Below, in pieces: positions 3,260-60,434 of a stretch of DNA of 64,000 nt (positions within the stretch are counted from its first letter, which is position 1; every line of letters starts with the position of its first letter). The stretch spans positions 186,001 to 250,000 of the forward strand of contig BCKZ01000004.1 of the NCBI GenBank assembly GCA_001600815.1, written 5' to 3'. The position numbers and the translations under genes are program-made. Under the pieces are notes generated by a model that worked only from the letters and a program-made list of their open reading frames with translations, searched no databases and had not been told where the DNA came from. The DNA comes from Alloascoidea hylecoeti. Its lineage: Eukaryota.

Positions 3260-6055
3260 TTATAATTGATTGGATTCATTTTCTTTCCATTTTAATAAGT
3301 AAGATAATTCTTGTTTTGAACAGCCCATACTTAAAAATGAATGATTTAATAATTCATCAGTATTTGCTCTTTTTTGAACTTCAACATATAAACAAATTTT
3401 TAAAAAATCTTTAATTTGTGGTGATAATAATTCAGGATTTTTTAATTTTGGGGTACCATTTGTTGCAATTAAATATAAAGCTTTTAAAGGTTCTTCATTT
3501 AAATATGGTGGTTCACTTTCAATCATTTCAATTGTCATTATACCTAAAGACCATATATCAACTTTTGAATCATAAGTTTTTTGTTTAACAATTTCTGGAG
3601 CCATCCAATATGGTGTACCAACCATTGTTGCTCTTTTTTTTTTTGAATCTGATAATTTTGCACAAAAACCAAAATCTGTTATTTTAACATTACCTTTTGC
3701 ATCTAATAAAACATTATCAGATTTAATATCTCTATGAATAATATTTTTAAGATGTAAGAAATTCAAACCTTTTGCTGTTTCAAATATAATTTTTGAGATT
3801 TGATTTTCTTTTAATTGTAAATTATTTTCAATTATATCTGTTAATGCACCACCTTCCATAAATTCCATAACAACCCATAATTCACCAGAAGATTTTAAAT
3901 AAGAATCTAAAAAATTAACAATATTTGGATGTTGACTTTCTTTCATAACTAAAATTTCATTTACAATTAATTCTTTTCTTGGTTGAGATTTTAATAACAT
4001 TTGTTTAATTGCAACTTTTTGTCCATGTCTTTTAATTGATCTTGCAACATAAACTGATCCACTTGCTCCTTGACCAATTTTATCAATTTTTTGATATAAT
4101 GGGGTTGGATCTTCAGATGATACAACTGATTTTAATTTATTAATTATTTGCGCTTCTGTCATACTCGATAATCGTTTATCAACTAGTTTTTTCTGACTAG
4201 TAGGATTTTTAATAGTACCATGAGTATTATTAGTAGGATGAGTGTTATTATTTTGATTATTATGATTATTATGATTATTGTGATTATTATGATTATTATG
4301 ATTATTATGATTATTTGGTATTTTATTTGGTGCTTGTGGACGAGGAGCTTGTCTTACTGGTTGCAATTTATTATCATTAACATTTTTATGTGATGGGTTA
4401 GTTTGTGATGATGATGAAAGTTTAGCATAACTGGCAGCAACAGCAGCAGCACTTATAGGTTGAGAAAAGTTTTGTTTTTGTTGTTGCTGATGTTGATATT
4501 GTTTTTGTTTTTGTTTTTGTTGTTGATAATATTGTTGTTTTTGTTGTAATATTTGGTAATGATTATAACGAGAAGCAGTTGTGGCTGGTGCCGACTGGGG
4601 TGTTTGAGGGCCAGAATGATTATTATTAATATTCATAGATCTTAATTGCTGCTCTTGAGAATGTTTCACATTTAGTTTAGTATTAATTTTAGGTAGGGAT
4701 GGAGGAGGAGGAGCGGCTCTTATTGGAGTATAATCCATGACTGATTTATTCGGGATCGTGGTTTGAAACATCCCAGGAACATTTTTATTGTTATTAGGAG
4801 GTATGGTATTATTAGGTATGACAGTTCGCTTTTCCAATCGTAATGGAGCAGTTGGAGCATCATCATCATCAAAATTATAAGATGTTGCATCGGATTTTGG
4901 AGATTTATCAGAACTTGAACCAGAAACTGAATAGCTTGAATTTGATTTTGATTGTGGAGAATTATGTTGTATTAATTGTGGTCTTGAAATGGCGGTGATT
5001 TTTGGAGTGGTTGTGTTTGATACACGTCTCACTGACGTAAAGCCTTGCATATGAGGATGTTGGATTTCCTTATCACTAACATATGAGGATAACGAAGGTG
5101 ATGAGGTTGTAGCTGCTATTGATGGTCGTTGTCGATCACGTAAATCTATTAATTTATTGTTATTGTTATTGTTATTGTTATTGTTATTGTTATTGTTATT
5201 GTTATTGTTGAGGTTATGATCATTTGCTTTGATATGAGACTGTTTCGAACATGCGACATTATTATATCTTTTTGGTTTTGAAACCTCATTTGAAAATTCT
5301 GATGGAGTAGGAGCAGTCATAGATCTTGTAATTTGATTTCTATGTGTAAGATCATTATCATCATTGATGTTTTCATTATCTTTCCCATTTTCTTTCATTA
5401 GACGTCTAAGTTCAGTTGCAAGATTTGGATCAGGGGAATTAATATCAGAATAAAATTCCAAAACATCAATAACAACCTGTGGATTTCTTTGAAAATCGTC
5501 AGTTGTAATAGCACTGTGTGATAACATTTTAGCCCAAGTATCAGGCAAGCCAGTAAAACTACCAGAATTTGAATCAAACCCAACATGGGCAACATGAGTA
5601 AAATTCATTGGTCCTGATACAGCAGACCCTGCAGCCATTCCAGTAGTACCAGTAGATTTTGACCAAATAACATTAATCCAGTTAGAAATTTCTTGATCAT
5701 TTTTACAACTAACAAAAGTAGATTTTTGAGACCCAGTTCTAATGATTTCAAAACAATAAGTTTTAGTTTGAACTCTTGAAACATTACTTATAGTTGATAA
5801 AGGGATTTGGTATGGATCATCATCTAATTTTGAGGATTTATAAAAAGAAAGAGAAGAATCATTTAGGACCAAATATTTTTTAGACCAGATCAAAGAAAAG
5901 AAACTTTCATCTCTGACCTGAGCCCAACCTTCATGTCTGTTTTTGGGGTAGTGAAGGGGCTGGGTAGTTGGTTTGGGACCTGGAGGTTTAGGCGCAGGCC
6001 CCGGATTTGAAAAGGCTTGGCTTGTAAAAGCAGTGGCCGCCGCGGACAAAGACAT
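3260..6055 (-). CDS. CLA4: PAK-family Ser/Thr kinase (PH + CRIB + kinase)
   Basis: N-terminal PH domain, CRIB motif VSGPMNFTHVAHVGFD, kinase motifs GQGASG, HRDIKSDN, DFGFCA, TMVGTPYWMAPE. The PH domain favours Cla4 over Ste20. Confidence 0.93.
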   Translation of the reverse strand: MSLSAAATAFTSQAFSNPGPAPKPPGPKPTTQPLHYPKNRHEGWAQVRDESFFSLIWSKKYLVLNDSSLSFYKSSKLDDDPYQIPLSTISNVSRVQTKTYCFEIIRTGSQKSTFVSCKNDQEISNWINVIWSKSTGTTGMAAGSAVSGPMNFTHVAHVGFDSNSGSFTGLPDTWAKMLSHSAITTDDFQRNPQVVIDVLEFYSDINSPDPNLATELRRLMKENGKDNENINDDNDLTHRNQITRSMTAPTPSEFSNEVSKPKRYNNVACSKQSHIKANDHNLNNNNNNNNNNNNNNNNNNKLIDLRDRQRPSIAATTSSPSLSSYVSDKEIQHPHMQGFTSVRRVSNTTTPKITAISRPQLIQHNSPQSKSNSSYSVSGSSSDKSPKSDATSYNFDDDDAPTAPLRLEKRTVIPNNTIPPNNNKNVPGMFQTTIPNKSVMDYTPIRAAPPPPSLPKINTKLNVKHSQEQQLRSMNINNNHSGPQTPQSAPATTASRYNHYQILQQKQQYYQQQKQKQKQYQHQQQQKQNFSQPISAAAVAASYAKLSSSSQTNPSHKNVNDNKLQPVRQAPRPQAPNKIPNNHNNHNNHNNHNNHNNHNNQNNNTHPTNNTHGTIKNPTSQKKLVDKRLSSMTEAQIINKLKSVVSSEDPTPLYQKIDKIGQGASGSVYVARSIKRHGQKVAIKQMLLKSQPRKELIVNEILVMKESQHPNIVNFLDSYLKSSGELWVVMEFMEGGALTDIIENNLQLKENQISKIIFETAKGLNFLHLKNIIHRDIKSDNVLLDAKGNVKITDFGFCAKLSDSKKKRATMVGTPYWMAPEIVKQKTYDSKVDIWSLGIMTIEMIESEPPYLNEEPLKALYLIATNGTPKLKNPELLSPQIKDFLKICLYVEVQKRANTDELLNHSFLSMGCSKQELSYLLKWKENESNQL
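5156..5209. repeat. (AATAAC)n microsatellite encoding poly-Asn in CLA4
   Basis: Direct reading of ttattg repeats. A 9-nt (NNH)n repeat also occurs at about 4255-4315. Confidence 0.9.
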
Positions 6056-22561: not shown

Positions 22562-24085
22562 TTATTGATAATGATGCAATATTGTCCTCCTTATAGCATT
22601 ATCAGTCCAGGCTTTTATAAACATCATTGTAACATTAACCCGAAGTATTTCTACTTGTGTTCTAAGACATGGAAATGCAGTATGAAATGCCCATAGTGTA
22701 CAGGACCAAATACTACTATAATGAAAAAAAAAATTGGCTATTAGATTCAAATAAATATTATGTTCTAAAAAGCACTTACACATTTCCACAAATTTCCAAT
22801 AAGCCTATAATTTGACGGGCATGCCGTACTTGATCATTAGTAGTTAAAGCACAATTTTCTTTAGTTAATCCAGGTTTTTTTTTATCCAATAAAATATGTG
22901 CAGTATGATAGCCCATAGTTGAGATATAACTTGTAATTCGGTCAAAAGTAAGCGAAAACCAAAAAAATCTAACTTCAGGACGATAACGGGTAAAAGTTGG
23001 TGGTGATATTGAATATGGTAACTTATCAGACCAATCATTTAATTTTTTAACTAATGATTTATATGTGTTACCATCTTTGTCCTCTTTATAATCCTCATAA
23101 GTTAAAACAGTTTGTTGATTGACGAAATTATTAACTAGTGCTAATAGATAGAAGACACGACAATAAAACCATGCTTTATAATATTTTCGAGGAGAAGTAG
23201 TATCTACTTCAGCTATCACACCCCATCTATTGATATGAAAATTATTAGTCAAAACGTTTCAAATTCAACTTTGGTATACTATACTTACTCGCTTGGATCC
23301 CACAGTGTTGGAGACTTGTGCAATATAGAATAAAATAAATCCGTAAAGACCACTAGCCAGAAACAACTCCTTGTTATTACAGAATCAAAAGGAGCACTAG
23401 GCTGACTACTATTGGCATCCACTTTATAAGTGTTCATAATTTCACGAAGAAGAGCTATAGAACTGGAACTGTGTTTGGTAGATTCCGTAAAAGTTTCGAA
23501 CTGACTTAAAAGAACAGAAACAATTAGACATTTATAAAGACATTTATCTTTAGATTCAAATTCTTTCTGTAACATTTTGAGAGTTCTGTAATAGTAGCGC
23601 ATTGGCAAATCGGCAGGATAGCGAAAGTCGATTTTGTGGGCATGTACTGCACCACAGCAGCATATCGCGGATAATAAGATACCTGATTTATCCATTATGG
23701 CCAATTTTGGGACGACTTCTTGAAAGAAACTTAAAGAGAAAGGGAAATCTAACCAATTGGCAAAAAATTCAGTATAAACATTCATGAGGTTCTCTTCAAG
23801 TGGATTCATTGTTTGAAGTTCACTGGTGGTCCCTGCAGATGTTTTGAACAATATTTCGGCAGACTCATCCAAAGCCTCCTCAAAACTATACTGCTGCACT
23901 ATATCTTCTGGGTCAGGTTTTGGCAAGGTTAGGTGATAATCAGCGAAAGCAGCCTTGACCTGGGCAACAGTTGGAAAGTTCAAGACGGGGTAGCCTACTG
24001 CAGCAGGTTCGCCTGGAGGGGGGGTGACTTGGTGGAATTCCTCGTATTTGGACTCAAAATACGCATACATATACTTAAACCCCAT
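22562..24085 (-). CDS. Fungal TF-associated (middle-homology-type) domain protein without Zn cluster, copy A; exons complement(23289..24085, 22780..23226, 22562..22715)
   Basis: Three ORF-track pieces are joined in frame by GTAAGT..TAG introns 23227..23288 and 22716..22779. Motifs FANWLDFPF..FFQEVVPKLA, LLSAICCCGAVH, SCFWLVVFTDL, YHTAHILL. Confidence 0.75.
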
Positions 24086-24617
24086 TTCAATTAATTAATA
24101 AATTAGGATCTGATTAGTTGAAAATATTAAACTGGGGGATTTTGATGGATCATTGGCGGTTTTTATAGTATGACTACTCAAAGTTATGCACGACATTCTA
24201 GTTATTTCCGTATTCAGTCAAATCTTTCTTTTTTCTTTATTACTCCCAAACAAACTGTTTTTCCTCGTAATTTTTATATCTATTGAGACTTCGTAAAATT
24301 TATAGCCAATAGCAATGGAGAAATTTTTTATTGTGTTAACAGATCAAAGATTACATTTTTATATATCACTAATAATTCACCATCTTCAACAACAATCGTA
24401 TGAAATAACAATAGCATTGAAATACTTAATGAATGGGACCTGATGAAATAATAAAAATTAAAGATTTAACTGTCAATATATTTTCATGAGATTCTTTGGC
24501 TCTTTTCTCAGTATTAATATAACCTTGTGCTTCCGTGCACACTGTGGTTAACAATAGTCGCAAGACATAGTCATGTTCAATTAATTCTTCATCTTTTAAA
24601 TATTCATCAATGGCGAG

Positions 24618-25013
24618 TGTTGGATATATATTACACTCTTAGAACAGTTCACTAAAGAGTCGATTGGCTTTTTGGCGCAACTGGGAGAACAGGCACTTTG
24701 AACTTTAACATGGTAGCGGCGCCGCCACGAGAGGCATCAGGTTCGAGTCCGCCGTAGGACGGTAGTTTACATCAGTCTAGTTGAGGCTTAGTAGGGTAAC
24801 GCATAAATGGCCCGAAAGTAAAATGTCCGAGTCAGTCTGCAAGAAGTCCGAAACCCGCAAGATCACGGGGGTGAGCAGATATGGCGATTAGTAAAGTGAC
24901 CTGCCTAAGGTTGGGGGGTGTGTTGGATATATATTACACTCTTAGAACAGTTCACTAAAGAGTCGATTGGCTTTTTGGCGCAACTGGGAGAACAGGCACT
25001 TTGAACTTTAACA
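24618..25013 (+). mobile_element. Complete non-autonomous miniature LTR retrotransposon (TRIM-like), 396 bp
   Basis: Two identical 93-bp LTRs (24618..24710, 24921..25013), each TGTT...AACA. TSD GCGAG at 24613-24617 and 25014-25018. PBS TGGTAGCGGCGC directly after the 5' LTR. G-rich PPT AAGGTTGGGGGGTG directly before the 3' LTR. 210-bp non-coding interior. Confidence 0.95.
24625..24750 (+). promoter_or_regulatory. Putative Pol III type-2 promoter within the TRIM (TATA, A box, B box)
   Basis: TATATAT at 24625-24631; TGGCGCAACTGG at 24673-24684 fits A-box TRGCNNARYNGG; GGTTCGAGTCC at 24740-24750 fits B-box GGTTCGANTCC; 55 nt lie between the boxes. Confidence 0.65.
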
Positions 25014-25815
25014 GCGAGATTTTCACTATTACCAGTATACACTTTGTCATCTGTAATATATTTGATCAGGCCCATTTATCTTAAAGTTGACCTAATTCCA
25101 AATTTCCAATTTTGTAAAGATGAAATATTATTTGTTAATCTATGCAATGTTTTACCTACATCCATATTGCTTGTTGTTGAAGTAGTGCCAGCGCCGCTAC
25201 CATGTTGATTTATCATTTCAGCTAGCTTTGCAATATCTTCTGAATTCATATCTTGAATAATATCTAAATTAATGTCTGAGGATCTTCACTACTAAATCTA
25301 CAATATGTAGAATCAATGAATAACAAACTTATATTTCCTCTTGTTTTTATCGTCTCTCCGCTTCTTACAAAAAGTGGGAATCCACCTATATATCTAATAA
25401 AATAATTCAACTCTATTAGAAAACATGAGATATATGTATATTGAGTAACCAATCAAATCAAGTAAACAATATAATAATAATCACTCATATCTTCTAATAC
25501 AAAAAATTATATATTTTAAAAAATAATTAAATCTTGTGTTTTAAATGAAGAAGATTTAGTAAAATGGTTAGTTGTGATTAAAAGATGTAAAAAAAATTAT
25601 GAACAAAATTTAAATTAACATCAAAAGAGGGAACAGTTCTAATACTGATACTATTGCTACTACGACATAAATACTTACTTTTAAGAGTAACAGATAGAAG
25701 AAAAAATTACAAAGAAATATTAACATAATAATAAGAAAAATATCATCTTAATGAAAGAATGGCTTTTAAAAAAACTATGTAGCGAACGAAAGAGAGAAAG
25801 TAAAAGAAATCAAAA

Positions 25816-27213
25816 TCAAATACGAGCGGGAGCGTTATTCGGCTCTGGTCGTATTCCAATATCACATTCTCTACTCATAACTTCAAATATAGAAAGAGCT
25901 TCAGACTTTTCTTTCCTAGATCTAAGACATGGAGCAGCAATACTGTATACCCATAGTGTGCAAGACCATACAGCACTAAATGACAAAAAAATTAGCTTAA
26001 ATCCAAATAAATATTGCAGAAAAAGAACTTACCGATCTTGACAAGATTTCAATATCCCCATAATTTCTCGAGCGTGTTTTAATTGTTCATCAGCGTTAGG
26101 CATAGATGTTAATTTAGGTTGTCTTCTAGCTAGTAAAATATGGGCGGCGTGGAAAGCAATCCACATTATATGTTGTTGTTTTTCACAACAGCATATAATA
26201 GGAAAAACCAAACCTTTAGTTATTTCTATAAAAATCACTGGTCTTAATGTTCCTGGTAAAGTAGCAGCCCATTCCTCTATCTTATCAAACAATTGAACAT
26301 GAGTAGCGTCATCTATTTTTAGTTCTTCTCTAGTGGGAACATTTCGTTGATTAACTAAATTATTAGCGAGTCCTAATAGATAAAAGATATGAAAATAAAA
26401 CCAAGGTGTATCTCTGTCAGGAATGATATTATCTACACCAGACTCTGGACCCCATCTATGAATGTTGAATAAGATTGTCAGTCAAAAAGTTTCAAGTTCA
26501 ACTTTAGTATGCTATACTTACTCTGTTGGACTCCACAGAGTTATAACGCTGTTCCTTAAAGAAACAAATAAGTCTGAAAAAACGAGAGGCCAGAAACAAT
26601 ACCTTGTTATCTGTGAATCAAACGGGTAGGCAGCATCCCTACTACTCGCATAAAATGAAGGAGTGTTTTTAATTTCATGAAGTAAAGATAATGAAGTAGG
26701 AAAATGTGAAGTATGTTCAATGATAGGGTCAAATATTATTGTTGATAAATTTAAAAGAACACTAACAATCAAGCATCTGTGCAGGCATCTATCTGGTTTC
26801 ACTAATTCCTCATTCAACATTGATGTAGTAGTGTTCAGAAAAGTTAATGCGAAATCTTGTGGATAACAAGAGGAGTCAGATCTGTGCAAATATACCGCGC
26901 CACAGGTTTTTATTGCGGATAATATGAGGCCTGTATTATCGTAAAGTGCTACACTGGGCAATACTTCCTTAAAAAAAAGTAGACAGAAGGGGATATCCAT
27001 CCATTTTGAAAAGTTATTAACATAAGCTTCAACGACTTTTACTGCCAGCGGTTCCGTGATCTCATGATCTATATGCATCTCTCTTGGAAGATGTTCTTTG
27101 GCAAAAAATTGCACACACTCAATCAAAGTTTCCTGACGACTTTCATCAGGTAGGTATAGTGCCGCGTAGCTTGGCTTTTTTGCCTGAGTTGATGATTGTG
27201 GTTCTATAGACAT
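25816..27213 (-). CDS. Zn-cluster-less fungal TF-domain protein, copy B; exons complement(26522..27213, 26033..26455, 25816..25975)
   Basis: Introns 26456..26521 and 25976..26032 (GTAAGT..TAG) sit at the same positions and phases as in copy A. The spliced frame is open. Shared motifs WMDIPF, YPFDSQITRYCFW, AFHAAHILL, VWSCTLW. Confidence 0.75.
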
Positions 27214-32548: not shown

Positions 32549-33231
32549 TTACCGTCTACCTCTACCCTTTCTTTTATTACTAACCACTTCAAACCCATCA
32601 TCATCAACAATTGGTCCATTATCAGCCATTTCAACATCTTCATTTTCACCTTCATGGCCATTACTATGAGAATGATTGTGATTATGCTCGTGTTCATCCG
32701 TTTCTTCAGCATTACCTGCAGCTGCTATACTTCGTGCCATTTGCTCCTGACTTTGTTGAAAATTCTTATATAATGTATCAACAGTTGTGAAATTATCCTT
32801 TGAACATTCACGATAAATATCAATTATTCTAGTTGCAATCTGTAAGGCTGTTCCATCATCAACTTGTGAATTAAATTCATCTTCCATTACATCAAGTAAT
32901 CTAGTTTCTATCGTTTCAGCATCGATATAATTCTCCTCTTAAAATAAAGACATAAATGTTAGTTATTTAATGATTAAACATGTGTTATTAGAATATAAGA
33001 AAACCTACCAAATAAATCGATGACAGAGCCAACTAACCAATCCCTTTTATCGCTTGAATCACCACCACCCCATTGATTAGAAACCGCAGTACTTAATGTA
33101 TTCCAACTATAAATAATTAAGGAAGTACCCAATTCAAATCGCTTTTGTGATTTCAGTTCTTGGAGCGTTAAAGGAGTTTCTTGCTCAATAATATAATTAT
33201 CAAGATTAATTTCAGTATTCATCATCGACAT
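32549..33231 (-). CDS. TSR2: Pre-rRNA processing protein Tsr2; exons complement(33009..33231, 32549..32937)
   Basis: WGG domain (AVSNQWGGGDSSDKRDWL), MEDEF..VDD, C-terminal VDDDGFEVV. 71-nt intron 32938..33008 (GTAGGT..AACTAAC..AAG) restores the frame. Confidence 0.92.
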
Positions 33232-34118
33232 AAATTATTTTGCTATTATGATGATTAAAAACGGACGAAATTTGAAATTTGAAATTTGAAATTTTGAATC
33301 TTTTTTTATTTTTTTGATTTCAGAAATTTCAATTTCGTTACAACATTACATTTTATAGTCACGTGGTCTGAAAATGTCAAGGAAGTACATCGTACCCCTA
33401 TGAGGACATGATTATCAAAATGTCGCTGAATTAATTTGACTAACTTTTAGGAAAATGAGACAAATATAAACATCTCTTGTGCAAAACATGATCACAGCAC
33501 TAAAATCTCCTAATTTATATATTAATATTGAATGCGAGAATAAGTAGATAAATGGCCAAGGGAAATTTAAAAATCAAGACATCCTGTTCAAAAAAATTAT
33601 GAAAATTCTACATGTAAATAAAAATGAAAAAAAATATTTCTTAACAGATCATCAAGTGAAAAATCAGATACTACCTTCTTCAGGTGCTCTATTATGCCAG
33701 CTCTTCTCGTTGCTACGCTAATGGACTTTTTGGGCCTTGAAATTGATTTCTTTGATCATTTCCTTCTCTGTAATACAAGGAGCGATTCCAACCATTGCTG
33801 TAACTTTATCATATATATATTTTCAGATAAATCGCTGGTATATCTATCCCTCAGAATATATGCATATGTATATGCATGATATAATAAAGTAAACGAAAAT
33901 GAGAAAATATGTAATAATCGGCTGTATGTGGAAATTACCTGAACTTTGTGCATGTATCTGCATATCATAAAACACAAATATTAAACCCATCATCACCATC
34001 ACATCATCAATTGCAATGTGCAATGGGAAAAAAACAATCAGGGTAATTTATATACAATTCTATCATATAAATAGCTTAGATTTGGCTATTTTGCCTTTTT
34101 CCTCTCCACCTTCACACC

Positions 34119-35559
34119 ATGTTTCAAGGACCACAATCATATCACTCGATACTACACGTACCTGTCGAAAGTCGTGAGGAGATTTTGTTTGAATGTGTGC
34201 AACTATTTTTCGCAAACCCTCTTCCAGCAAACACAAACTTACCGGTCTATCATACCATAAAACTGTCTGAGGTAAAACTCATGGAGGCTTATGTTGATCA
34301 CTTTGCTGAATGGATCGATATCCCCTTTCCCTTCCTCTTTTTCAAAGAAGTATTACCCATTGCGTCGCTTTCCGATAAGACAGGCATCATAATATCAGCA
34401 ATAAATTCCTGTGGAGCGGCATATTTGCACAAGTCTGACCCCTCCCAATATTCTCACAATTTAGCATTGACTTTACTGAACGATACTATCAAAATGTTGA
34501 CTGATGAAATAGGGAGACCAGATAAAAGTTTACATAGATGCTTGATTGTTTCTGTGCTTTTAAATCTATCAGAAAATATTTTGGATCCGGATCCTACTAT
34601 TAAACATACAGTACACCTTTGCGGCTCTAAAGATATTCTTAATGAGATAAAAAAGACTCCTTCATTGTATACATATGCGAGTCCTACTGGTGCTGCCTAC
34701 CCATTCGATTCACAGATAACAAGGTACTGCTTCTGGTCTCTCGTTTTTTCGGATCTATTTTCTTCCTTAAAAAGCAGTTCTATAATGTGGTGGAATCCAA
34801 AAAAGTGAGTATAACATACTAAAGCTGAATTTGGAATCTTCTTACCAGCAATTTTTCCAATAGATGGGGTCCAGAATCAGGTATAGATACCATCACTCCT
34901 GTGAGAGATACAGCATGGTTTTATTGTCGAATCTTTTATCTATTATCACTTGTTAATAATTTAGTTAACCATCAAGATGTTCCCACTTTGGAAAACCATA
35001 GACAAAAAATAGATGATGTTACACATAATCAATTGATTGATGAGATACAAGAATGGGTTGATACCTTACCAGAAGAATTAAGACCAACAATGCTTCTAAG
35101 AACAACTGAATATGAGGGTTTTCCTATTATTAGTTGTCATGGGAAGCAGCAATATATAATGTGGATTGCTTTTCACGCTGCCCATATTTTACTAACTAAT
35201 AGAATGCTTGGGTTAACCGATTCCAATCCTATTTGCCAAATGTATACGTGTAGCTATGCTGCAAAATTAAATCACGCTCGCAAAATTATGGGTATATGGA
35301 GATCTTCTCAGGATCCGTAGGTTTTTTTTCTAATACAATTGACATTTATTTAAATTTAAGCTAATATTTTTTGTCATTTAGTGTTGTATGGTCTTGTACA
35401 CTATGGGCTTACGATATTGCTGCTCCATGTCTTAGATCCCAGAAAGAAAAGTCCGAAGCTAGTTCTATATTCGAAACTATGAATGAAAGAATTAGTATCG
35501 GAATACGACCAGGGCAGAAGATTTATAAATTTATAAATAAAACTCCTGTTGATATTTGA
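34119..35559 (+). CDS. Zn-cluster-less fungal TF-domain protein, copy C; exons 34119..34804, 34864..35316, 35382..35559
   Basis: Introns 34805..34863 (GTGAGT..TAG) and 35317..35381 (GTAGGT..GCTAAT..TAG) match the positions in copies A and B. Closest to copy B. Confidence 0.75.
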
Positions 35560-35764
35560 TTTTGATTTCTTTTGCTTTCTCTCTTTGGCTCGCTACATCG
35601 TGTTTTAAAAGCCATTGTCTAATTATGATGTTTTCTTATTATAATGTTAATTATTTTCTGTAAAATTTTCTTATATTTTTATCCCGGGATCCTAAAGTAA
35701 TTCTTTATGCCGTAATAACAGTACTATTATTATTAGAACTCTGCTTCCTTTGATTTTGATTTAA

Positions 35765-35950
35765 ATTTTATTCATCATATTTTTGTTTCGAATGATATAC
35801 TTTTAATCATAACTAACCATTTTAAATCTTCTTGCATTGAACCACAAAATCTAATCATTTTTAAAAATATATCAATTTTTGTACAAGTTAATGATAATGA
35901 ATCAATTTCAACTGCATCAATTAAATCTTTTATTGCTATTATCTTATCTG
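35765..35950 (-). pseudogene. Remnant of the C-terminal half of a PH domain (Opy1-like)
   Basis: Minus frame KIIAIKDLIDAVEIDSLS...IRFCGSMQEDLKWLVMIKS resembles PH beta5-beta7 plus the terminal helix. The homologous + strand piece at about 25520-25590 reads KSCVLNEEDLVKWLVVIKR. No intact upstream ORF. Confidence 0.5.
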
Positions 35951-37386
35951 TAATATTATTTTACATGTACCATTTGAAATATTTTATCATTAACATTTAT
36001 TTTATTGCTATTGTTATTTGATACGATTGTGAAGATATTTGTGTGTTCTTTGCAAAGATTTGTTTTTATTTTGTTCATTATCATCTTTTGGGTTTTGTTT
36101 TATGCTATTGTTATTTTTACTTTAATAGTAAGATTATTATCATCATTTTCAGTAATATCGTTATTTATGGGTAGAATACCCGTATAAATTAGTTGGGATA
36201 GATTTCTAAATTTTTTATCTAATACTGGTAAAGATAAACTACTATTATCAGAATTTGAAAGGGAAGAAGCTATATTTTTTTGATTGTTGAAACTTTTCTT
36301 TGTTTTGATGGATAATTAACTGGAATTGAGATTAAAGTATATTTAGATAGATTTCGATTCTGATTGATAAATATCTTCTCAAATTTGTCTTGTGTATTAT
36401 TAGTATTATAACTAGCCACTAAATACTCGACAAACCATTAAACTCTGCCTAAGATAGTGAATAATGTTTCTATTAGACTACGCAAAATGAAATTTTAAAT
36501 CTATGATAGTACTATGAATATTATGTGTACTATTAGTGGCTTATTAACGCCATGCTACCTTACGAGGCAAGGAGTTAATCGGATTACCAATGATAACCTG
36601 ATCCATGAGGTCCCAATTTTTGAAAAGACTTAATAAAGAGATCTTTATTCCTTTATACACCATGTAAAAGGCTCATAATCGCAATTTTAGACCTTTGATG
36701 AACTTATTTAAGGAGGCTCCTCCACACTCTCTAGGAATATGCATATCCACCATAATGTGCACGTGATACTAATTCTCAGTCGGAACAACATGTAGGCCCT
36801 ATTTGTATGATCCCGAAATCTAGAGACCTACTACATACTACATAGTTAAGATATAAGGATAAATAGTTTGACAAAGAAGTGCAAAAAATAAGTAGAAGAC
36901 TCAAGATTTACAATTACTATTTATCTACTTTCTGTCGGTTTTAATGTATAAATAAATTGATTTTGATGTTGTAGTCACATTTTCAGTGTTGATTATAGTT
37001 TTCATAATTATATTTATAAGCCTACAGCTTAAACTGAAAGGTTTCCTGATTTGACTCATAGTAAATTGCAATTAATGTTATCATCAGTAGGTACGTATAC
37101 CGATCGTTACTCTAAATCTTAATTGCAATACAATGTACTTAAAATCATTATGATCCACAACAAGTCTTATAGTATTGTCTCACTCGGTGTTCTTTCTGAT
37201 CACGTCAACTACCGTTATGGGTCGGTGATCTCACCAAATATCCAACAGCATAGACAAGCTTAAAAATCTACAGATCTAGGCAAATAAATAATCCAAGGAT
37301 CATCTCCAGACGAGCAAAGATGCAATTGAGTAAACAGGCCAAAAGAAAAATTTATAAAATATCAGTCAGTATATAAATTTTAAATT

Positions 37387-39989: not shown

Positions 39990-40747
39990 TTATTGTTTAG
40001 TCAGCGTTGCTTTCTCTTTTTCCATTCGTTGCAGCAGATCACGTGTCTTGCGTGTTTTGTCCAGAACGAGCTGCGTCGCATACTCGTACCGCTCCATCTC
40101 CTCGTTTTCCCGTTCTTGGCTGAAGCCGCCGTGTTGCTGGGGCAACAACGGCCTCCTCGTCAGAATCTCAAACATGATTTCCGTCGGCTCGTTGAAGACA
40201 ATTTCGTCGTAAATGATGCTCTTAACTTCGTTGCTGGTGGGAACTTGATCCGCTGCATATCCGTATGGGTGCAGTTTCAGATGGTGGTATAACGTTACGT
40301 TTTTTTCATTCGCGTCGCTGTGAAAGTATATTTTGATTGTGATTTCAAACTCCCCCCATCCTGTTTCGGTGACTTCGTATGGCGGTGCATCAACGGCTGT
40401 CAGTGTTTCGTTAGTTGGTTGCCACTAGTACATGACTATAATTGGAAAGCACTCACTTCGTGTTGAATTGGCATACGTATCATGTAATTTGAAAACAACC
40501 TTCTTGATGAAGTATGAAAGGTCTTCTCCTTGGGGTCCTCTGACAAATATAGTCCAAGAATGCGTATGGTCAACGGGTGTTGTTGGTGTTCGCTGTTTAT
40601 CCGTTAAAGGTGTTGCAACATTTCCATAAATAAACGGTCGATATAATGAAATGTTCTATTCTCTGAGTGTTAATATATGTGTACATAGTTGGATATGTTA
40701 TAACTTTTATTTACCTTTAATCGTTTTGAACTGGCTCCTGTCATCAT
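39990..40747 (-). CDS. YAF9: YEATS-domain protein (NuA4/SWR1 subunit); exons complement(40715..40747, 40457..40655, 39990..40396)
   Basis: Mostly absent from the ORF track. Manual translation gives RPFIYGN, HTHSWTIFVRGP, YFIKKVVFKLHDTY, PPYEVTETGWGEFEI, YHHLKLHPY. Introns 40656..40714 (GTAAAT..TAG) and 40397..40456 (GTGAGT..ACTAAC..CAG). Confidence 0.93.
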
Positions 40748-44583: not shown

Positions 44584-45818
44584 CTTTCTTTTTTTCTATT
44601 TCCCCTTTATAAAAATATTAGTGAATTAATGAAAATTATATTTTTGAGTTGTTAGAAAAAGATTTTTTTTTCTTCGATATGAAGTGATTATGTCATGCTT
44701 ATGCAATTTTTATACTTATTTACGCTTAGTTTTGAACAAATTATATGTAATAATGTTCGACCATTTGTTACATGCGCTAAATATTAGTGGAACAAGAGGC
44801 CGAATTTTCACCCCAAAAGTGGTCGTAAATAAGTGGAAGCACTGTAGTATGGTCAGAAAATTACAAGTTCAACCTATAGATGGTTATAATTGGAGTAAAC
44901 TAAAAGAAGTCTTCTTTGATAACTCTAGGAAGTTGTTCGATTAATGTTGAGTTATAACTAACTGTCTCTTTATAAGTTCGTATGCTTGGTGATGGCCTTA
45001 TAATTATTAGTTAACATTCTGGATAGAAGCATATGAGTCCACGACAATTACAATATTAATACTGTAACCACTTAATCATATAATTGATATTTACATTATT
45101 TTATTAACAAAAACAACTAGGTATAGTAGTATACTAGCAAAAAATAACAAAATGCAACACCGATAAATGTCTTTGGAGAATAACATAACAGACAATGATA
45201 ACAACGATAATAATAATAAACTCAAATATAATAGAAACAGTAAGCATAGAAAAAAATTAAAAGTAACCTTTCAAAACTAAAATATAATTGCAATTGTTGT
45301 ATGAATATTTGTTAAAAAAGAGAAATTAATATATATTCTTGTGAATGTATCAATTGCAAGAAAATAACAATTGTAAAAAGCCTTGTGTTATTAAAATTAA
45401 TTTTTGTTTCCAACACAACAAATGGTATAAAATATGGATATCCACTCTTGTACAGTTGACAAGAGGTCCTGCGACTTTTTGGTGTAACTGGTTCATGGTC
45501 TTTAATATAAAATAAGATCACCTCCTTAAGCTTAACCTTCAAAACCAAATTAATTGCAATAAAAGAAAATAATATGGGTATAATAATAATAATATAAATA
45601 ATACCGTAATAAAGATAATAATGAAAATAACAATAAAAAATAAACACAAACATAAACATAATAATATTAGCAATAACAATAAGAATAAACGTTAACATAA
45701 CAATAATAAAAATAAGCAAATCAATAATAAAAATAAACATAATAACAATAGAAATAAACATAAACATAAAAACAATAGTCAAGAACGGAAACATTAATTG
45801 AGTCAAATCAAATCACAT

Positions 45819-56558: not shown

Positions 56559-59285
56559 ATGCCCTCCTGTACAAGAAGACAATCAGGCCCTGTCCCCATC
56601 GCCCCTTACAGTAAGCCTAGTAGTTCTACAATACACCACGATCATAATGTTATCCGCCCACACACCTACACACGAAAATCGAAAACGGTCAAGTCTTGTA
56701 CCTGTTGTCGTCAGCTAAAGATAAAATGCAACGCTTCCGTGGTTTTTCCGAGTCCATGCTCCAACTGCGCTAAAAAGGGCAAATCATGTGAAATTGATCC
56801 TCTGTTTAAACCTGTTCATAACACAACTACTGCTCATGTACAGTTACTACCCCGTCGGTCACATTCCCCAGTATCTACTGCAAATAACGTTAATAGTAAT
56901 AATAACACAAGCGCAGCAAAACATAAAGCGAGTCAATTGGAAGCTTTAAAAACAGAACTTGATACATTACGATCCGATATAAAACATTTATTACGTTCCG
57001 AATCAATATTAGCAAATGATGAAGCTGTTTTAAGGATATCTACAACCTTACCTTCTCCACCATCAAGCCGTACATCTTCTGTTGATGATGAATATGATTA
57101 TGCACATGAAGGTGATGTTTTTATCTTAAATTCTTTATCTTTATCAAAAGAAAAAGCTTTAAAGTTACTTGATACTTTTCTTAATGAATATTCAATTTAT
57201 TTGCCAGTTTCTTTTATAAATTTATCATCTTTACCAATAGATGAAATCTATAATAGATCTCCATTATTATTCTGGTCCATTTGTTTAACTTCTTGTTTAT
57301 CACCATCATCAATATTTCAAAATAATGATGGCGATGGAAGTGAAAATGAAAATGACCTTGAGATTTTATATTTGAAAATATCAAATAATATAATTAATCT
57401 AATACCAAAATTTTGTTTATTTGGTACTTCAAAATCAGAAATTTTAGATATTTATGCTTTATTAATTTTATCATCATGGCCATTACCACATTTGAACAAT
57501 GATAAATCTTATAGATTTGTTTCTTTATCAAAAACATTAGCAAATGAAATTGGTATTAATATTGGTTGTAATAGTCTTTTAGATGGTGATATTTTAGCTG
57601 AAAGAGATGTTGAATCATCATTTAATTCAATTTCAATTAAATCTAAAAATGATTTAACATCTTTAAATGTTCAATTATGGAATGGAATTTTCTTTTTAGA
57701 TCAATCATGGTGTGCAAATTTAGGTTACTCTTTAAATTCATTACCTGATTTTACAATTGAACAATTTATATCAACAAATATAAATGATAATTTAAAAGAA
57801 AACTCTTATGAATATAATAATATATTAAAATGGAAAAAAATTATGAAATTAATTGTATTTCAATCAAAATTAGTTCAAACTGTTTCATGTTCAACATCAA
57901 ATATAACAGGATTAATATCATCAAAGGAAAGAGTTTGTCAATTATTAATATTAAACTCTCAATTATCAACAATTTTTGATAATATGAGTATTAATATAAA
58001 TAGTATTGATAATATTAATGATTTATCAATTTTAATAACTTATCATTATATTAAATTAATTTTATGTTCTTATGGATTTTTAAATGATATTGAATATGAT
58101 GATCAATTACTTTTTGTACCAACTGCTTTTGAATCATCAATCAAGATTTGTGAATTACTTAAATCATTTATTGATTATAAAAATTTAAATTTAAATTTAA
58201 ATTCGAAATTTTATTTCCATCAGTTACCAATTTTTATAAGAAATCCTTTTTCATTTGCTTGTCTTACATTATTTAAATTACATTTATCATCAATGTTATC
58301 ATTTAAATCAATTAAAAAATCAAGAGATGTTATTATAAGTTCTTATAATTTATTAACAACTTCAAAAATATCATTAAAATTTGATGATATATCAAGAACT
58401 GTATCAATTTTAGAAAAATTAAATCTTGTTATATTAAATCATCCAGAAGTTATAATTGGTGATAGTGTTATATCTCATATGTCTGGTCATTCATCAGCTT
58501 CTTTAGTCTATGAATTAATTTGGTGTATACAACATTCAAATAAATTATCAAATGAATCAATTAAAAGTTTAAAAGATTCTAAAAAAATTTATAATTCTGA
58601 TAAAGATACTGGAATGACATTCAATTCATTTGATGAATTATTTAATTATAAGAATTTAAATGATAATGATAAATTAAGAATATTTTTAGGTAAACCATTT
58701 CAATTACCTTTTAAAAGACAATCAGATTTAGAATCACCACGTACACCATCAACACAATCAAAATCAAAATCTTTACCTCTGAATAAAATTGTAAAGCCAT
58801 CATCGAAGTATCAAAGGCATCAATCATTTTCAAACCATAATATAAAATCGGCTCAAGTATCACCAATTCTTCCAAAATCACATTCAGAATTTAGACCAAT
58901 ATTACCAAATCCAAAATCTAAAACTAATAAAAATAGTAATATCATTTCATTACCACACATTAATCAACTTTCAAATTATCAATTAGATTTTAAGAAAAAT
59001 GATGATGTTGCTGATCAATCTTCTTCTTTAACTGACTTATCAAAATATAATATCCATAAAGCAACCCCAAAAATTAATTCTTTGAATGTTCCTTTCTCTA
59101 AGAATATTAACAATTGCTTAAGCGCGATCCAATCCCCAACATATTTATCACCACAACAATCTCCAGATATAAGCAGAAGAAATACATCTATTTATAATAA
59201 TAATAATAATCATATGGAAGTTACAACTGGTTCTTTTGATGCTTTAATTCAAGGTGTTAATTGGGTTGAAAGAAACTCAATATAA
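56559..59285 (+). CDS. Zn2Cys6 transcription factor, Sef1-like
   Basis: SCTCCRQLKIKCNAS..FPSPCSNCAKKGKSCEIDPLFKP closely follows the Sef1 cluster; SPLLFWSICLTS and LLILSSWPLP in the middle-homology region. First ATG is 56559. Confidence 0.85.
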   Translation: MPSCTRRQSGPVPIAPYSKPSSSTIHHDHNVIRPHTYTRKSKTVKSCTCCRQLKIKCNASVVFPSPCSNCAKKGKSCEIDPLFKPVHNTTTAHVQLLPRRSHSPVSTANNVNSNNNTSAAKHKASQLEALKTELDTLRSDIKHLLRSESILANDEAVLRISTTLPSPPSSRTSSVDDEYDYAHEGDVFILNSLSLSKEKALKLLDTFLNEYSIYLPVSFINLSSLPIDEIYNRSPLLFWSICLTSCLSPSSIFQNNDGDGSENENDLEILYLKISNNIINLIPKFCLFGTSKSEILDIYALLILSSWPLPHLNNDKSYRFVSLSKTLANEIGINIGCNSLLDGDILAERDVESSFNSISIKSKNDLTSLNVQLWNGIFFLDQSWCANLGYSLNSLPDFTIEQFISTNINDNLKENSYEYNNILKWKKIMKLIVFQSKLVQTVSCSTSNITGLISSKERVCQLLILNSQLSTIFDNMSININSIDNINDLSILITYHYIKLILCSYGFLNDIEYDDQLLFVPTAFESSIKICELLKSFIDYKNLNLNLNSKFYFHQLPIFIRNPFSFACLTLFKLHLSSMLSFKSIKKSRDVIISSYNLLTTSKISLKFDDISRTVSILEKLNLVILNHPEVIIGDSVISHMSGHSSASLVYELIWCIQHSNKLSNESIKSLKDSKKIYNSDKDTGMTFNSFDELFNYKNLNDNDKLRIFLGKPFQLPFKRQSDLESPRTPSTQSKSKSLPLNKIVKPSSKYQRHQSFSNHNIKSAQVSPILPKSHSEFRPILPNPKSKTNKNSNIISLPHINQLSNYQLDFKKNDDVADQSSSLTDLSKYNIHKATPKINSLNVPFSKNINNCLSAIQSPTYLSPQQSPDISRRNTSIYNNNNNHMEVTTGSFDALIQGVNWVERNSI

Positions 59286-59468: not shown

Positions 59469-60012
59469 CTTTACATTTGATGAAATTGTCTACAGTATTA
59501 GTTAATGTGTCTTTTAATGGTGTTAGATGATAGATTATTAATAGTACATTAAATTAGCTTTGTAATTTATCATACCAATTCTACTTCGTTTCAGAGACTA
59601 ATATCGACCATTTCTTGAAAAAATAATCGGCCACCCACCAATTAAAGATAAATTTATACTACCAATGTTGGAATAGGAGCGTGCACACACACACTGTATC
59701 ACACATATTAGTGAGGAATCCATGGCAAATTGTCGAAACATGACCATTGTTGGACTTTGAGAGCGTTTATAAGGGAAGTTCCTACTTGTTCAGTTTTCAC
59801 TACAAAATTGAACATTTTGTCCCTCCGTACATCAGAATTTCACGCTCTGTTGATTACTTTGAAATAGTACTGAAACTTAAAAAGCTCATCATTCAAAGAT
59901 GGCCGATATTGAGCGAAATTAAGTGTTGTCGTCAGTATTGGCCCATAAATACAAAATCACTTTGGCGTCTACATGTATAAACATGAAATCTAGACAAATG
60001 ATCATGACATTT

Positions 60013-60103
60013 TGTTAAAGTTCAAAGTGCCTGTTCTCCCAGTTGCGCCAAAAAGCCAATCGACTCTTTAGTGAACTGTTCCAAGAGTGTAATATATCCA
60101 ACA
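60013..60103 (-). mobile_element. Solo LTR of the TRIM family
   Basis: Reverse complement of the 93-bp LTR with one substitution and loss of one TA unit (91 bp). Flanked by TSD CATTT (60008-60012, 60104-60108). Confidence 0.95.
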
Positions 60104-60434
60104 CATTTTGCCTATTTCCAAGATATAACATCACAATATAACGATTTTATAACTATATGCAGTTATTCAAGCGTAAAATTGATGTAAATAATGGCTGATC
60201 GATTTAGATCTGGAGACATATTATTGAATAAATAGATCAACATAAAATGGCACAATCATAAATAATAAGAAAAGCAAATACAATTACAGTCAGATGAAAA
60301 TGATGACTATAGGGAATACTAAAATAAACTGTAGAATTAACTGAAGATGAATTAAATACTCAGATCTATGCAATATTATTAAATACTTATTATGTATAAT
60401 TCATATATGAAGTTTATGCTATTTATCATTTTAA

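Follow-up and report, generated by a model that had tools for sequence, protein, structure and literature searches.

TRIMs are described as LTR retroelements of less than 1000 bp with a PBS and a PPT at the two ends of the interior, those of fungi giving 5-bp duplications at the target (PMC10886601). The same source reports them from plants, insects, cestodes and bivalves and, under the name Helenus, from rust fungi and some agaric fungi; the hosts that it gives for Helenus are Pucciniales and a few Agaricomycetes, not yeasts, and the shortest group that it quotes, the SMARTs (small LTR retrotransposons), measures 292 bp (PMC10886601). A pair consisting of LTR-1_PTrit and Copia-9_PGr, with the same PBS region and unlike LTRs, is described by Kojima (PMC10886601). 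Among the yeasts, Candida albicans harbours non-coding LTR elements (Tca1, Tca9, Tca10 and Tca13) that are 'presumably' transactivated; Tca1 is given as 5614 bp and the Tca10 interior as about 2 kb, and the LTRs of this species range from 127 to 780 bp, with about 3-30 copies per family (PMC4139406). LARDs are reported from the centromeres of Scheffersomyces stipitis (PMC8546629).

LTR retrotransposition is best understood in budding yeasts, and gene-less miniature LTR parasites, TRIMs included, which are common in plants, are unreported there in the openly accessible papers covered by the literature search. The Ty1 element of Saccharomyces cerevisiae has LTR ends of the TGTTGG...AACA type, a PBS that starts with TGGTAGCG, a G-rich PPT and a 5-bp duplication. 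The element presented here was analysed within a stretch of DNA of 64,000 nucleotides (hereafter, the window) and is very probably one copy of a multi-copy TRIM-type family in a budding yeast, carrying cis signals alone. The initial annotation had recorded identical 93-bp LTRs, the target-site duplication GCGAG, a 210-bp non-coding interior, a PBS-like tract and a PPT, all of which were confirmed on the sequence. The features of the element are as follows.

24613..24617, plus strand: left target-site duplication, GCGAG (5 bp)
24618..24710, plus strand: 5' LTR, 93 bp, TGTTGG...TTAACA
LTR positions 7-14: TATA-like tract, ATATATAT
Near LTR positions 35-41: A-rich tract
LTR positions 52-56: T5 run, the only one in the LTR
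24673-24684, in the 5' LTR: A-box-like motif, TGGCGCAACTGG
24711..24726, plus strand: PBS-like tract TGGTAGCGGCGCCGCC, GC-rich, with a TGG start, directly 3' of the 5' LTR
24711..24920, plus strand: non-coding interior, 210 bp
24740..24750, plus strand: match to the B-box
24907..24920, plus strand: PPT-like tract AAGGTTGGGGGGTG, directly 5' of the 3' LTR
24921..25013, plus strand: 3' LTR, identical to the 5' LTR
25014..25018, plus strand: right target-site duplication, GCGAG

Pairwise comparison of the two LTRs (24618-24710 and 24921-25013) revealed identity at 93 of 93 positions. They start with TGTTGG and end with TTAACA, are of the TG..CA type and carry a 4-bp terminal inverted repeat (TGTT/AACA). 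The whole element measures 396 bp, and its longest stop-free stretch in the six frames extends over 39 codons, which indicates an element without coding capacity. The G+C content is 54% in the interior and 39% in the LTR, with 28% in the flanks and 28.7% in the whole window. The 12-mer TGGTAGCGGCGC of the PBS region was found twice in the window, where 0.01 matches are expected, and the PPT-like tract is purine-rich with a run of six G, but includes three T. A 93-bp LTR lies at or below the usual range of TRIM LTRs and is shorter than common LTR finders accept by default, so that such families may be missed in annotation. U3, R and U5 would all have to fit into these 93 bp; the highest summed depth of aligned contigs within the LTR is at 24658-24691 (LTR positions 41-74), which covers the T5 run and the core of the A-box-like motif, and a short R would fall in this part, the best conserved as judged by summed depth. 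The idea of a structured RNA in the GC-rich interior was rejected, since folding was no better than that of shuffled sequences (as good or better in 199 of 200 shuffles, z +1.94). Rfam gave no match at the gathering score and none at E<=10 over 24560-25070, and ARAGORN predicted no tRNA gene in the 64-kb window.

The window is gene-dense and intron-poor, with fungal genes coding for a Zn2Cys6 factor, a PH-PBD kinase, Per1, Mpp10 and ATP sulfurylase. The best named relatives of the ATP sulfurylase are those of Komagataella (69% identity), Babjeviella (68%) and Candida boidinii (66%), followed by those of Brettanomyces, Ogataea and Pachysolen at 63-64%, and these identities point to a Saccharomycotina yeast with no close named relative in the database. 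The yeast host proposed earlier is hence borne out by the gene content and by the relatives of the ATP sulfurylase. A TSR2-like (WGG) gene (32552-33234, minus strand) and a YEATS-domain gene (39993-40655, minus strand) each lie in two adjacent open frames; short introns are suggested in both. Codon usage is very strongly biased: of the 1210 codons that fall in the six standard Leu boxes of 16 long ORFs, 899 are TTA and just 29 are CTG.

Copy estimates were obtained from the contigs of public sequencing runs (X1, X3, X5 and X6, the last of these a metagenome) aligned to 24318-25313; the figures are word-depths of contigs, which must be distinguished from copy numbers, and overlap between contig ends could raise the LTR sum by a factor of up to about two. 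Between 81 and 97% of the sampled words of the element are present in six run rows from three studies, comprising three wood-decay metagenomes, one of them perhaps the source of the window, and three runs of 'organism A'. In X3, an error-free contig of 217 nt (24684-24900; 27 nt of LTR end and 190 nt of interior) has a depth of 719.6 against 21.1 for an error-free contig of the flank, a ratio of about 34. The interior and flank depths are 142.7 and 7.9 in X5 (about 18-fold) and 184.6 and 8.84 in X6 (about 21-fold). A 333-nt contig of X1 (24682-25013) shows 0 differences from the LTR end across the complete interior and 3' LTR.

These ratios settle one half of a point raised in the initial annotation, according to which a 93-bp LTR that also flanks full-length gag-pol elements, together with an interior occurring only once, would mark a one-off deletion derivative: the interior is multi-copy in X3, X5 and X6 alike. 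Such a one-off derivative, a chance pair of unrelated solo LTRs 210 bp apart, or an artefact of assembly are extremely improbable explanations of the locus. They accord with the presence of only one interior-bearing copy within the window, but the interior is multi-copy and adjoins the LTRs without a break in contigs from several runs, which belong to three studies, one 5-bp duplication brackets the entire unit, and the PBS and PPT stand exactly at the inner edges of the LTRs.

The LTR is far more abundant than the interior. Its summed depth reaches maxima of 31,957 in X3, 8,464 in X5 and 8,922 in X6, which as a rough figure is a thousand times the flank, and the ratio of LTR to interior depth is about 40 to 1; the majority of the LTRs must thus be solo or part of something else. 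Most of the contigs fit both LTRs (215 of 244 in X3, 180 of 223 in X5 and 140 of 178 in X6). At the LTR edges, 24710/24711 ('behind') and 24921 ('before'), loose ends continue into many differing sequences, with an agreement of 0.52-0.65 among the 22 rows listed, beside 113 further rows. On a rough estimate, LTR-equivalents in the genome number in the hundreds, up to about a thousand, and interiors a few dozen. For a yeast, the LTRs are unusually short and their count is unusually high. One further member lies within the window itself, flanked by its own 5-bp duplication AAATG.

60013-60103 (60008..60108 with the duplication), minus strand: solo LTR of the same family, 91 bp, differing by a single substitution and by a gap of 2 nt in the AT tract

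Some variants were observed as well. An LTR form that lacks 2 nt of the AT tract at 24927, which is the form of the solo LTR at 60013-60103, is represented by 2-7 contigs per run, and a form of the interior with a 36-bp deletion (24857->24894) is present in three runs. One contig of X5 joins 24711 to 24921, i.e. an LTR end to an LTR start, with one side resting on 26 nt. A candidate for a diverged LTR at 45443-45491 (74.5% over 51 nt, LTR positions 17-67, E 0.05) shares the core CTTTTTGG.G.AACTGG with the LTR, and was set aside as probably a chance match since it sits in an open frame of 166 codons (45315-45812, minus strand). A search of JGI metagenomes with a 22-nt LTR core gave two loci, each with a match of only 25 nt, and these were also treated as chance.

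The excess of LTRs bears on a further explanation, which is possible though unlikely, namely that the family arose by internal deletion from an autonomous element with the same 93-bp LTRs that survives in the genome, in which case this parent family would be the helper; many of the extra LTRs could, with similarly limited likelihood, belong to full-length copies or be their solo remnants. An LTR depth about 40-fold above that of the interior is in favour of this, but solo LTRs account for the excess equally well. The segment 24862-24895, in the last 60 nt or so of the interior, has depths of 1,625 (X3), 446 (X5) and 622 (X6), 1.5-3 times those of the central interior, which implies that the PPT-side end is common to other sequences; these may, however, be variants of the interior, for instance the form with the 36-bp deletion. 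Also in favour are loose ends at 24715, found in one contig of X3 and two of X5, where the LTR and TGGTA give way to another A-rich sequence of similar appearance. Against a surviving parent, no full-length element with 93-bp LTRs was seen among the sequences analysed, and 93 bp would be unusually short for the LTR of an autonomous yeast element when compared with the range quoted above for C. albicans (PMC4139406).

The site of insertion also has an unoccupied, diverged counterpart. In each of four runs, one contig joins 24609 directly to 25013, with the element absent and GCGAG present once, as predicted by a transposition that duplicated GCGAG. This contig has a single-copy depth (20.7 in X3) and carries 6-12 differences per side (about 91-94% identity), with a 2-nt difference just before GCGAG, at the junction. 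The contig represents either another copy of the flank that has diverged or an allele that has diverged strongly, and not an orthologous empty allele. The structure, the multi-copy interior and this empty, diverged second site together uphold the earlier description of the locus as a TRIM-like non-autonomous LTR retroelement.

Recent mobilisation, also claimed in the initial annotation, is sustained in part. The LTRs are identical, and the error-free 217-nt contig at about 34 times the flank gives moderate support; 0 differences over 93 bp, on the other hand, bounds the divergence between the LTRs only to less than about 3.2% at 95%, so that the description 'young' draws less on the LTR pair than on the interior contigs, which are identical and of high depth. 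The occupied junction is also present in X5, a run of another study (contig 24986-25244, 0 differences), and the insertion is therefore not private to the source of the window. The contigs of X3 and X6 leave gaps at 25100-25201, which are uninformative. Recent activity or amplification of the family is thus moderately supported, whereas the particular insertion is shared with another study's run.

A small cluster of paralogous, fungal transcription-factor-like genes is located at 22776-24085 (minus strand), 26029-27213 (minus strand) and 34119-35317 (plus strand); each appears as two ORFs, and one matches Fungal_trans_2. Upstream regions of these paralogues (25498-25900 and 35457-35883) are 73-75% similar in inverted orientation, and it is this paralogy that allowed about 1 kb of inserted DNA around the TRIM to be recognised. 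On comparison with the paralogous stretch 35575-36116, also 73-75% similar, homology breaks at 25498 and resumes at 24472, the insert amounting to 1025 bp here against 34 bp at the paralogous locus (35883-35918). The 1025 bp consist of the TRIM with its duplication (401 bp) and about 624 bp of other sequence that has no paralogous counterpart. This remainder is probably a truncated fragment of a second LTR retroelement family ('element 2'), with the same PBS and an unlike LTR, into which the TRIM is inserted.

25019..25497, minus strand: upstream part of the putative 'element 2' retroelement fragment
24473..24612, minus strand: downstream part of the 'element 2' fragment, continuing in the same reading frame

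The putative LTR of 'element 2' ends with AACA at 25203 and is followed by TGGTAGCGGCGC at 25202-25191 on the minus strand. An ORF on the same strand starts at 25249, crosses this junction and covers 57 codons to a TAA. Once the TRIM is removed in silico, the frame stays open over a further 81 codons, and its stop lies just below 24429. Open stretches of 57 and 81 codons have chance probabilities of about 0.008 and 0.001, respectively, in DNA so rich in AT. The 16-mer AACATGGTAGCGGCGC at 25206-25191, 47 bases into the ORF and in the same orientation as the ORF in which it lies, is that of the LTR end and PBS of the TRIM and can be taken as the junction proper to 'element 2', and the likeness of the two elements in this region reaches 20 of 22 positions. 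The segment 25202-25269 has about five times the depth of the flank in X3, X5 and X6, and 24481-24609 together with 25013-25105 about twice. The first ORF of 'element 2' would begin inside its LTR, and its assignment as 'Gag' is suggested by its position and by the open frames. In Ty1, likewise, an ORF starts within the LTR and reads across the PBS.

Several searches were made with the 'element 2' ORF. Two pieces of it gave no Pfam family at E<=10, a word-indexed search for longer proteins scored 0 of 35 candidates, and a full HMMER scan of 1.84 billion representatives returned one match, the ORF itself. In the ESM Atlas, one piece had no usable match, and the other gave best scores of 0.83-0.78, one of them from a cluster with the retrotransposon domain Pol_BBD; such values amount to no more than a lead.

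A probable route of propagation can be outlined for the TRIM. An RNA would begin inside the 5' LTR and end inside the 3' LTR, and an autonomous LTR retrotransposon resident in the genome would supply the Gag-Pol that packages and reverse transcribes it. A tRNA, expected to be that of initiator methionine, would presumably prime the minus strand at the TGG... site, and the G-rich tract would prime the plus strand. The integrase of the helper would then insert the copy and produce the 5-bp duplication, and later recombination between LTRs would leave solo LTRs. The initial annotation had named a Ty1/copia helper, which is plausible. Neither a 5-bp duplication nor a TGG... PBS distinguishes copia from gypsy in yeasts. 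No gag, protease, RT, RNase H or integrase domain was found in the 24 ORFs of at least 200 aa of the window or in 51 further stop-to-stop frames of at least 70 aa. The sole cis signal in common with a possible partner is the 16-nt identity of LTR end and PBS with the 'element 2' fragment, and the 'element 2' family is the sole candidate relative of the helper that can be pointed to.

The route outlined above leaves room for a different mode of transcription. The element may, although this is doubtful, be the same TRIM transcribed by Pol III from a split promoter of the tRNA type, with the A-box in the LTR (U5) and the B-box in the interior. In this rather improbable scheme, only a 5' LTR with an interior behind it would be an active promoter, and the T5 run in the 3' LTR would act as the terminator, leaving a very short R of about 10-17 nt. 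The element would then be the equivalent in yeast of Cassandra and Helenus, the 'TRIMp3' elements, from which it would differ in a promoter that straddles the junction of LTR and PBS. For the Pol III B-box/tRNA T-arm consensus (GGTTCGAGTCC), the perfect match at 24740-24750 is the sole one on both strands of the 64 kb (0.05 expected). The A-box-like pattern TRGCNNARYTGG occurs five times in the window against 0.43 expected, and three of the five are LTR copies, the one in the 5' LTR lying 55 nt upstream of the B-box. The two occurrences outside the LTRs, at 4423-4434 (plus strand) and 56761-56772 (minus strand), are both within long ORFs. The motifs were, however, chosen post hoc, and neither ARAGORN nor Rfam (E<=10) finds a tRNA or other RNA.

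The arrangement of the T runs can be read in two ways. The only runs of at least four T in the element are the T5 runs that precede the A-box-like motif in each LTR, and both the T5 run and the A-box-like core fall in the LTR segment of top depth, which is in favour of Pol III; yet a T5 located some 10 nt past the start would need to be ignored in the 5' LTR and used in the 3' LTR. As for the absence of TTTT between the two T5 runs, it has no significance at this composition, since 931 of 2000 dinucleotide shuffles are likewise free of TTTT. Avoidance of T runs as a sign of Pol III was accordingly discarded, as composition explains it. A TATA-like tract about 35-40 nt upstream of the expected Pol III start fits the scheme, but the TATA-like, A-rich and U-rich tracts also fit an ordinary Pol II start and 3'-end signals. 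A precedent exists in Cassandra, described as producing a terminal RNA duplication of 18 bp by means of a Pol III promoter in its LTR, and tRNA-like promoters are described in fungal TRIMs (PMC10886601). If transcription by Pol III were true, RNA would come from complete elements alone, with no activity at solo and 3' LTRs, and the T5 run of the 3' LTR would fix a minimal R. Should TFIIIC bind these copies, their dispersed A-box sites, about a thousand in number, and their dozens of B-box sites could also influence where Ty-like integrases insert in this yeast.

The locus very probably represents a true TRIM family of a budding yeast, apparently of recent amplification and of a kind already known from plants and some fungi. 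The copy estimates would mean an unusually large transposable element load for a small yeast genome, achieved by an unusually small element. If the host is culturable, the family would offer a tractable system for defining the minimal RNA signals of packaging, priming and integration in trans, and the same system would probe the lower size limit of the LTR and of the R region.

Comparison with the described systems places the element among the TRIMs. It is non-coding and shorter than 1 kb, with TG..CA direct repeats, a PPT and a target-site duplication, and is present in several copies. The type of its LTR ends, the PBS-like tract next to the LTR, the G-rich PPT and the 5-bp duplication recall Ty1. 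Unlike Ty1, it has no coding sequence and its LTR is about a quarter of the length of that of Ty1; neither this copy nor the solo LTR lies near tRNA genes, of which there are none in the 64 kb. With the plant and animal TRIMs and the SMARTs it shares short LTRs, a short non-coding interior, a PPT at the inner LTR edge, a 5-bp duplication, many copies and solo LTRs, and its PBS-like tract and probable mobilisation in trans would correspond to the PBS and the mobilisation described for those groups (PMC10886601), but it differs from the plant and animal TRIMs in its budding-yeast host and bears no sequence relation to them. At 396 bp it is close to, and not below, the 292 bp quoted for SMARTs (PMC10886601). 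Helenus, as described, resembles it in having a fungal host, a 5-bp duplication and an excess of solo LTRs, and also in a PBS region common with a candidate autonomous element whose LTRs are unlike (PMC10886601). Helenus is, however, defined by a tRNA-like sequence in the LTR ('TRIMp3'), and ARAGORN and Rfam detect none in the yeast element, which has instead an A-box-like motif in the LTR and a B-box match in the interior. The LARD class, for which an interior on the kilobase scale is needed, does not apply to an interior of 210 bp. The non-coding elements of C. albicans and the LARDs of S. stipitis are similar in lacking gag and pol, and some of them are described as having identical LTRs, an intact PBS and PPT and a 5-bp duplication, with transactivation as the presumed means of movement (PMC4139406; PMC8546629). 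They are, however, kilobases long (PMC4139406; PMC8546629), whereas the yeast TRIM combines a length of 396 bp and LTRs of 93 bp with a far higher LTR count.
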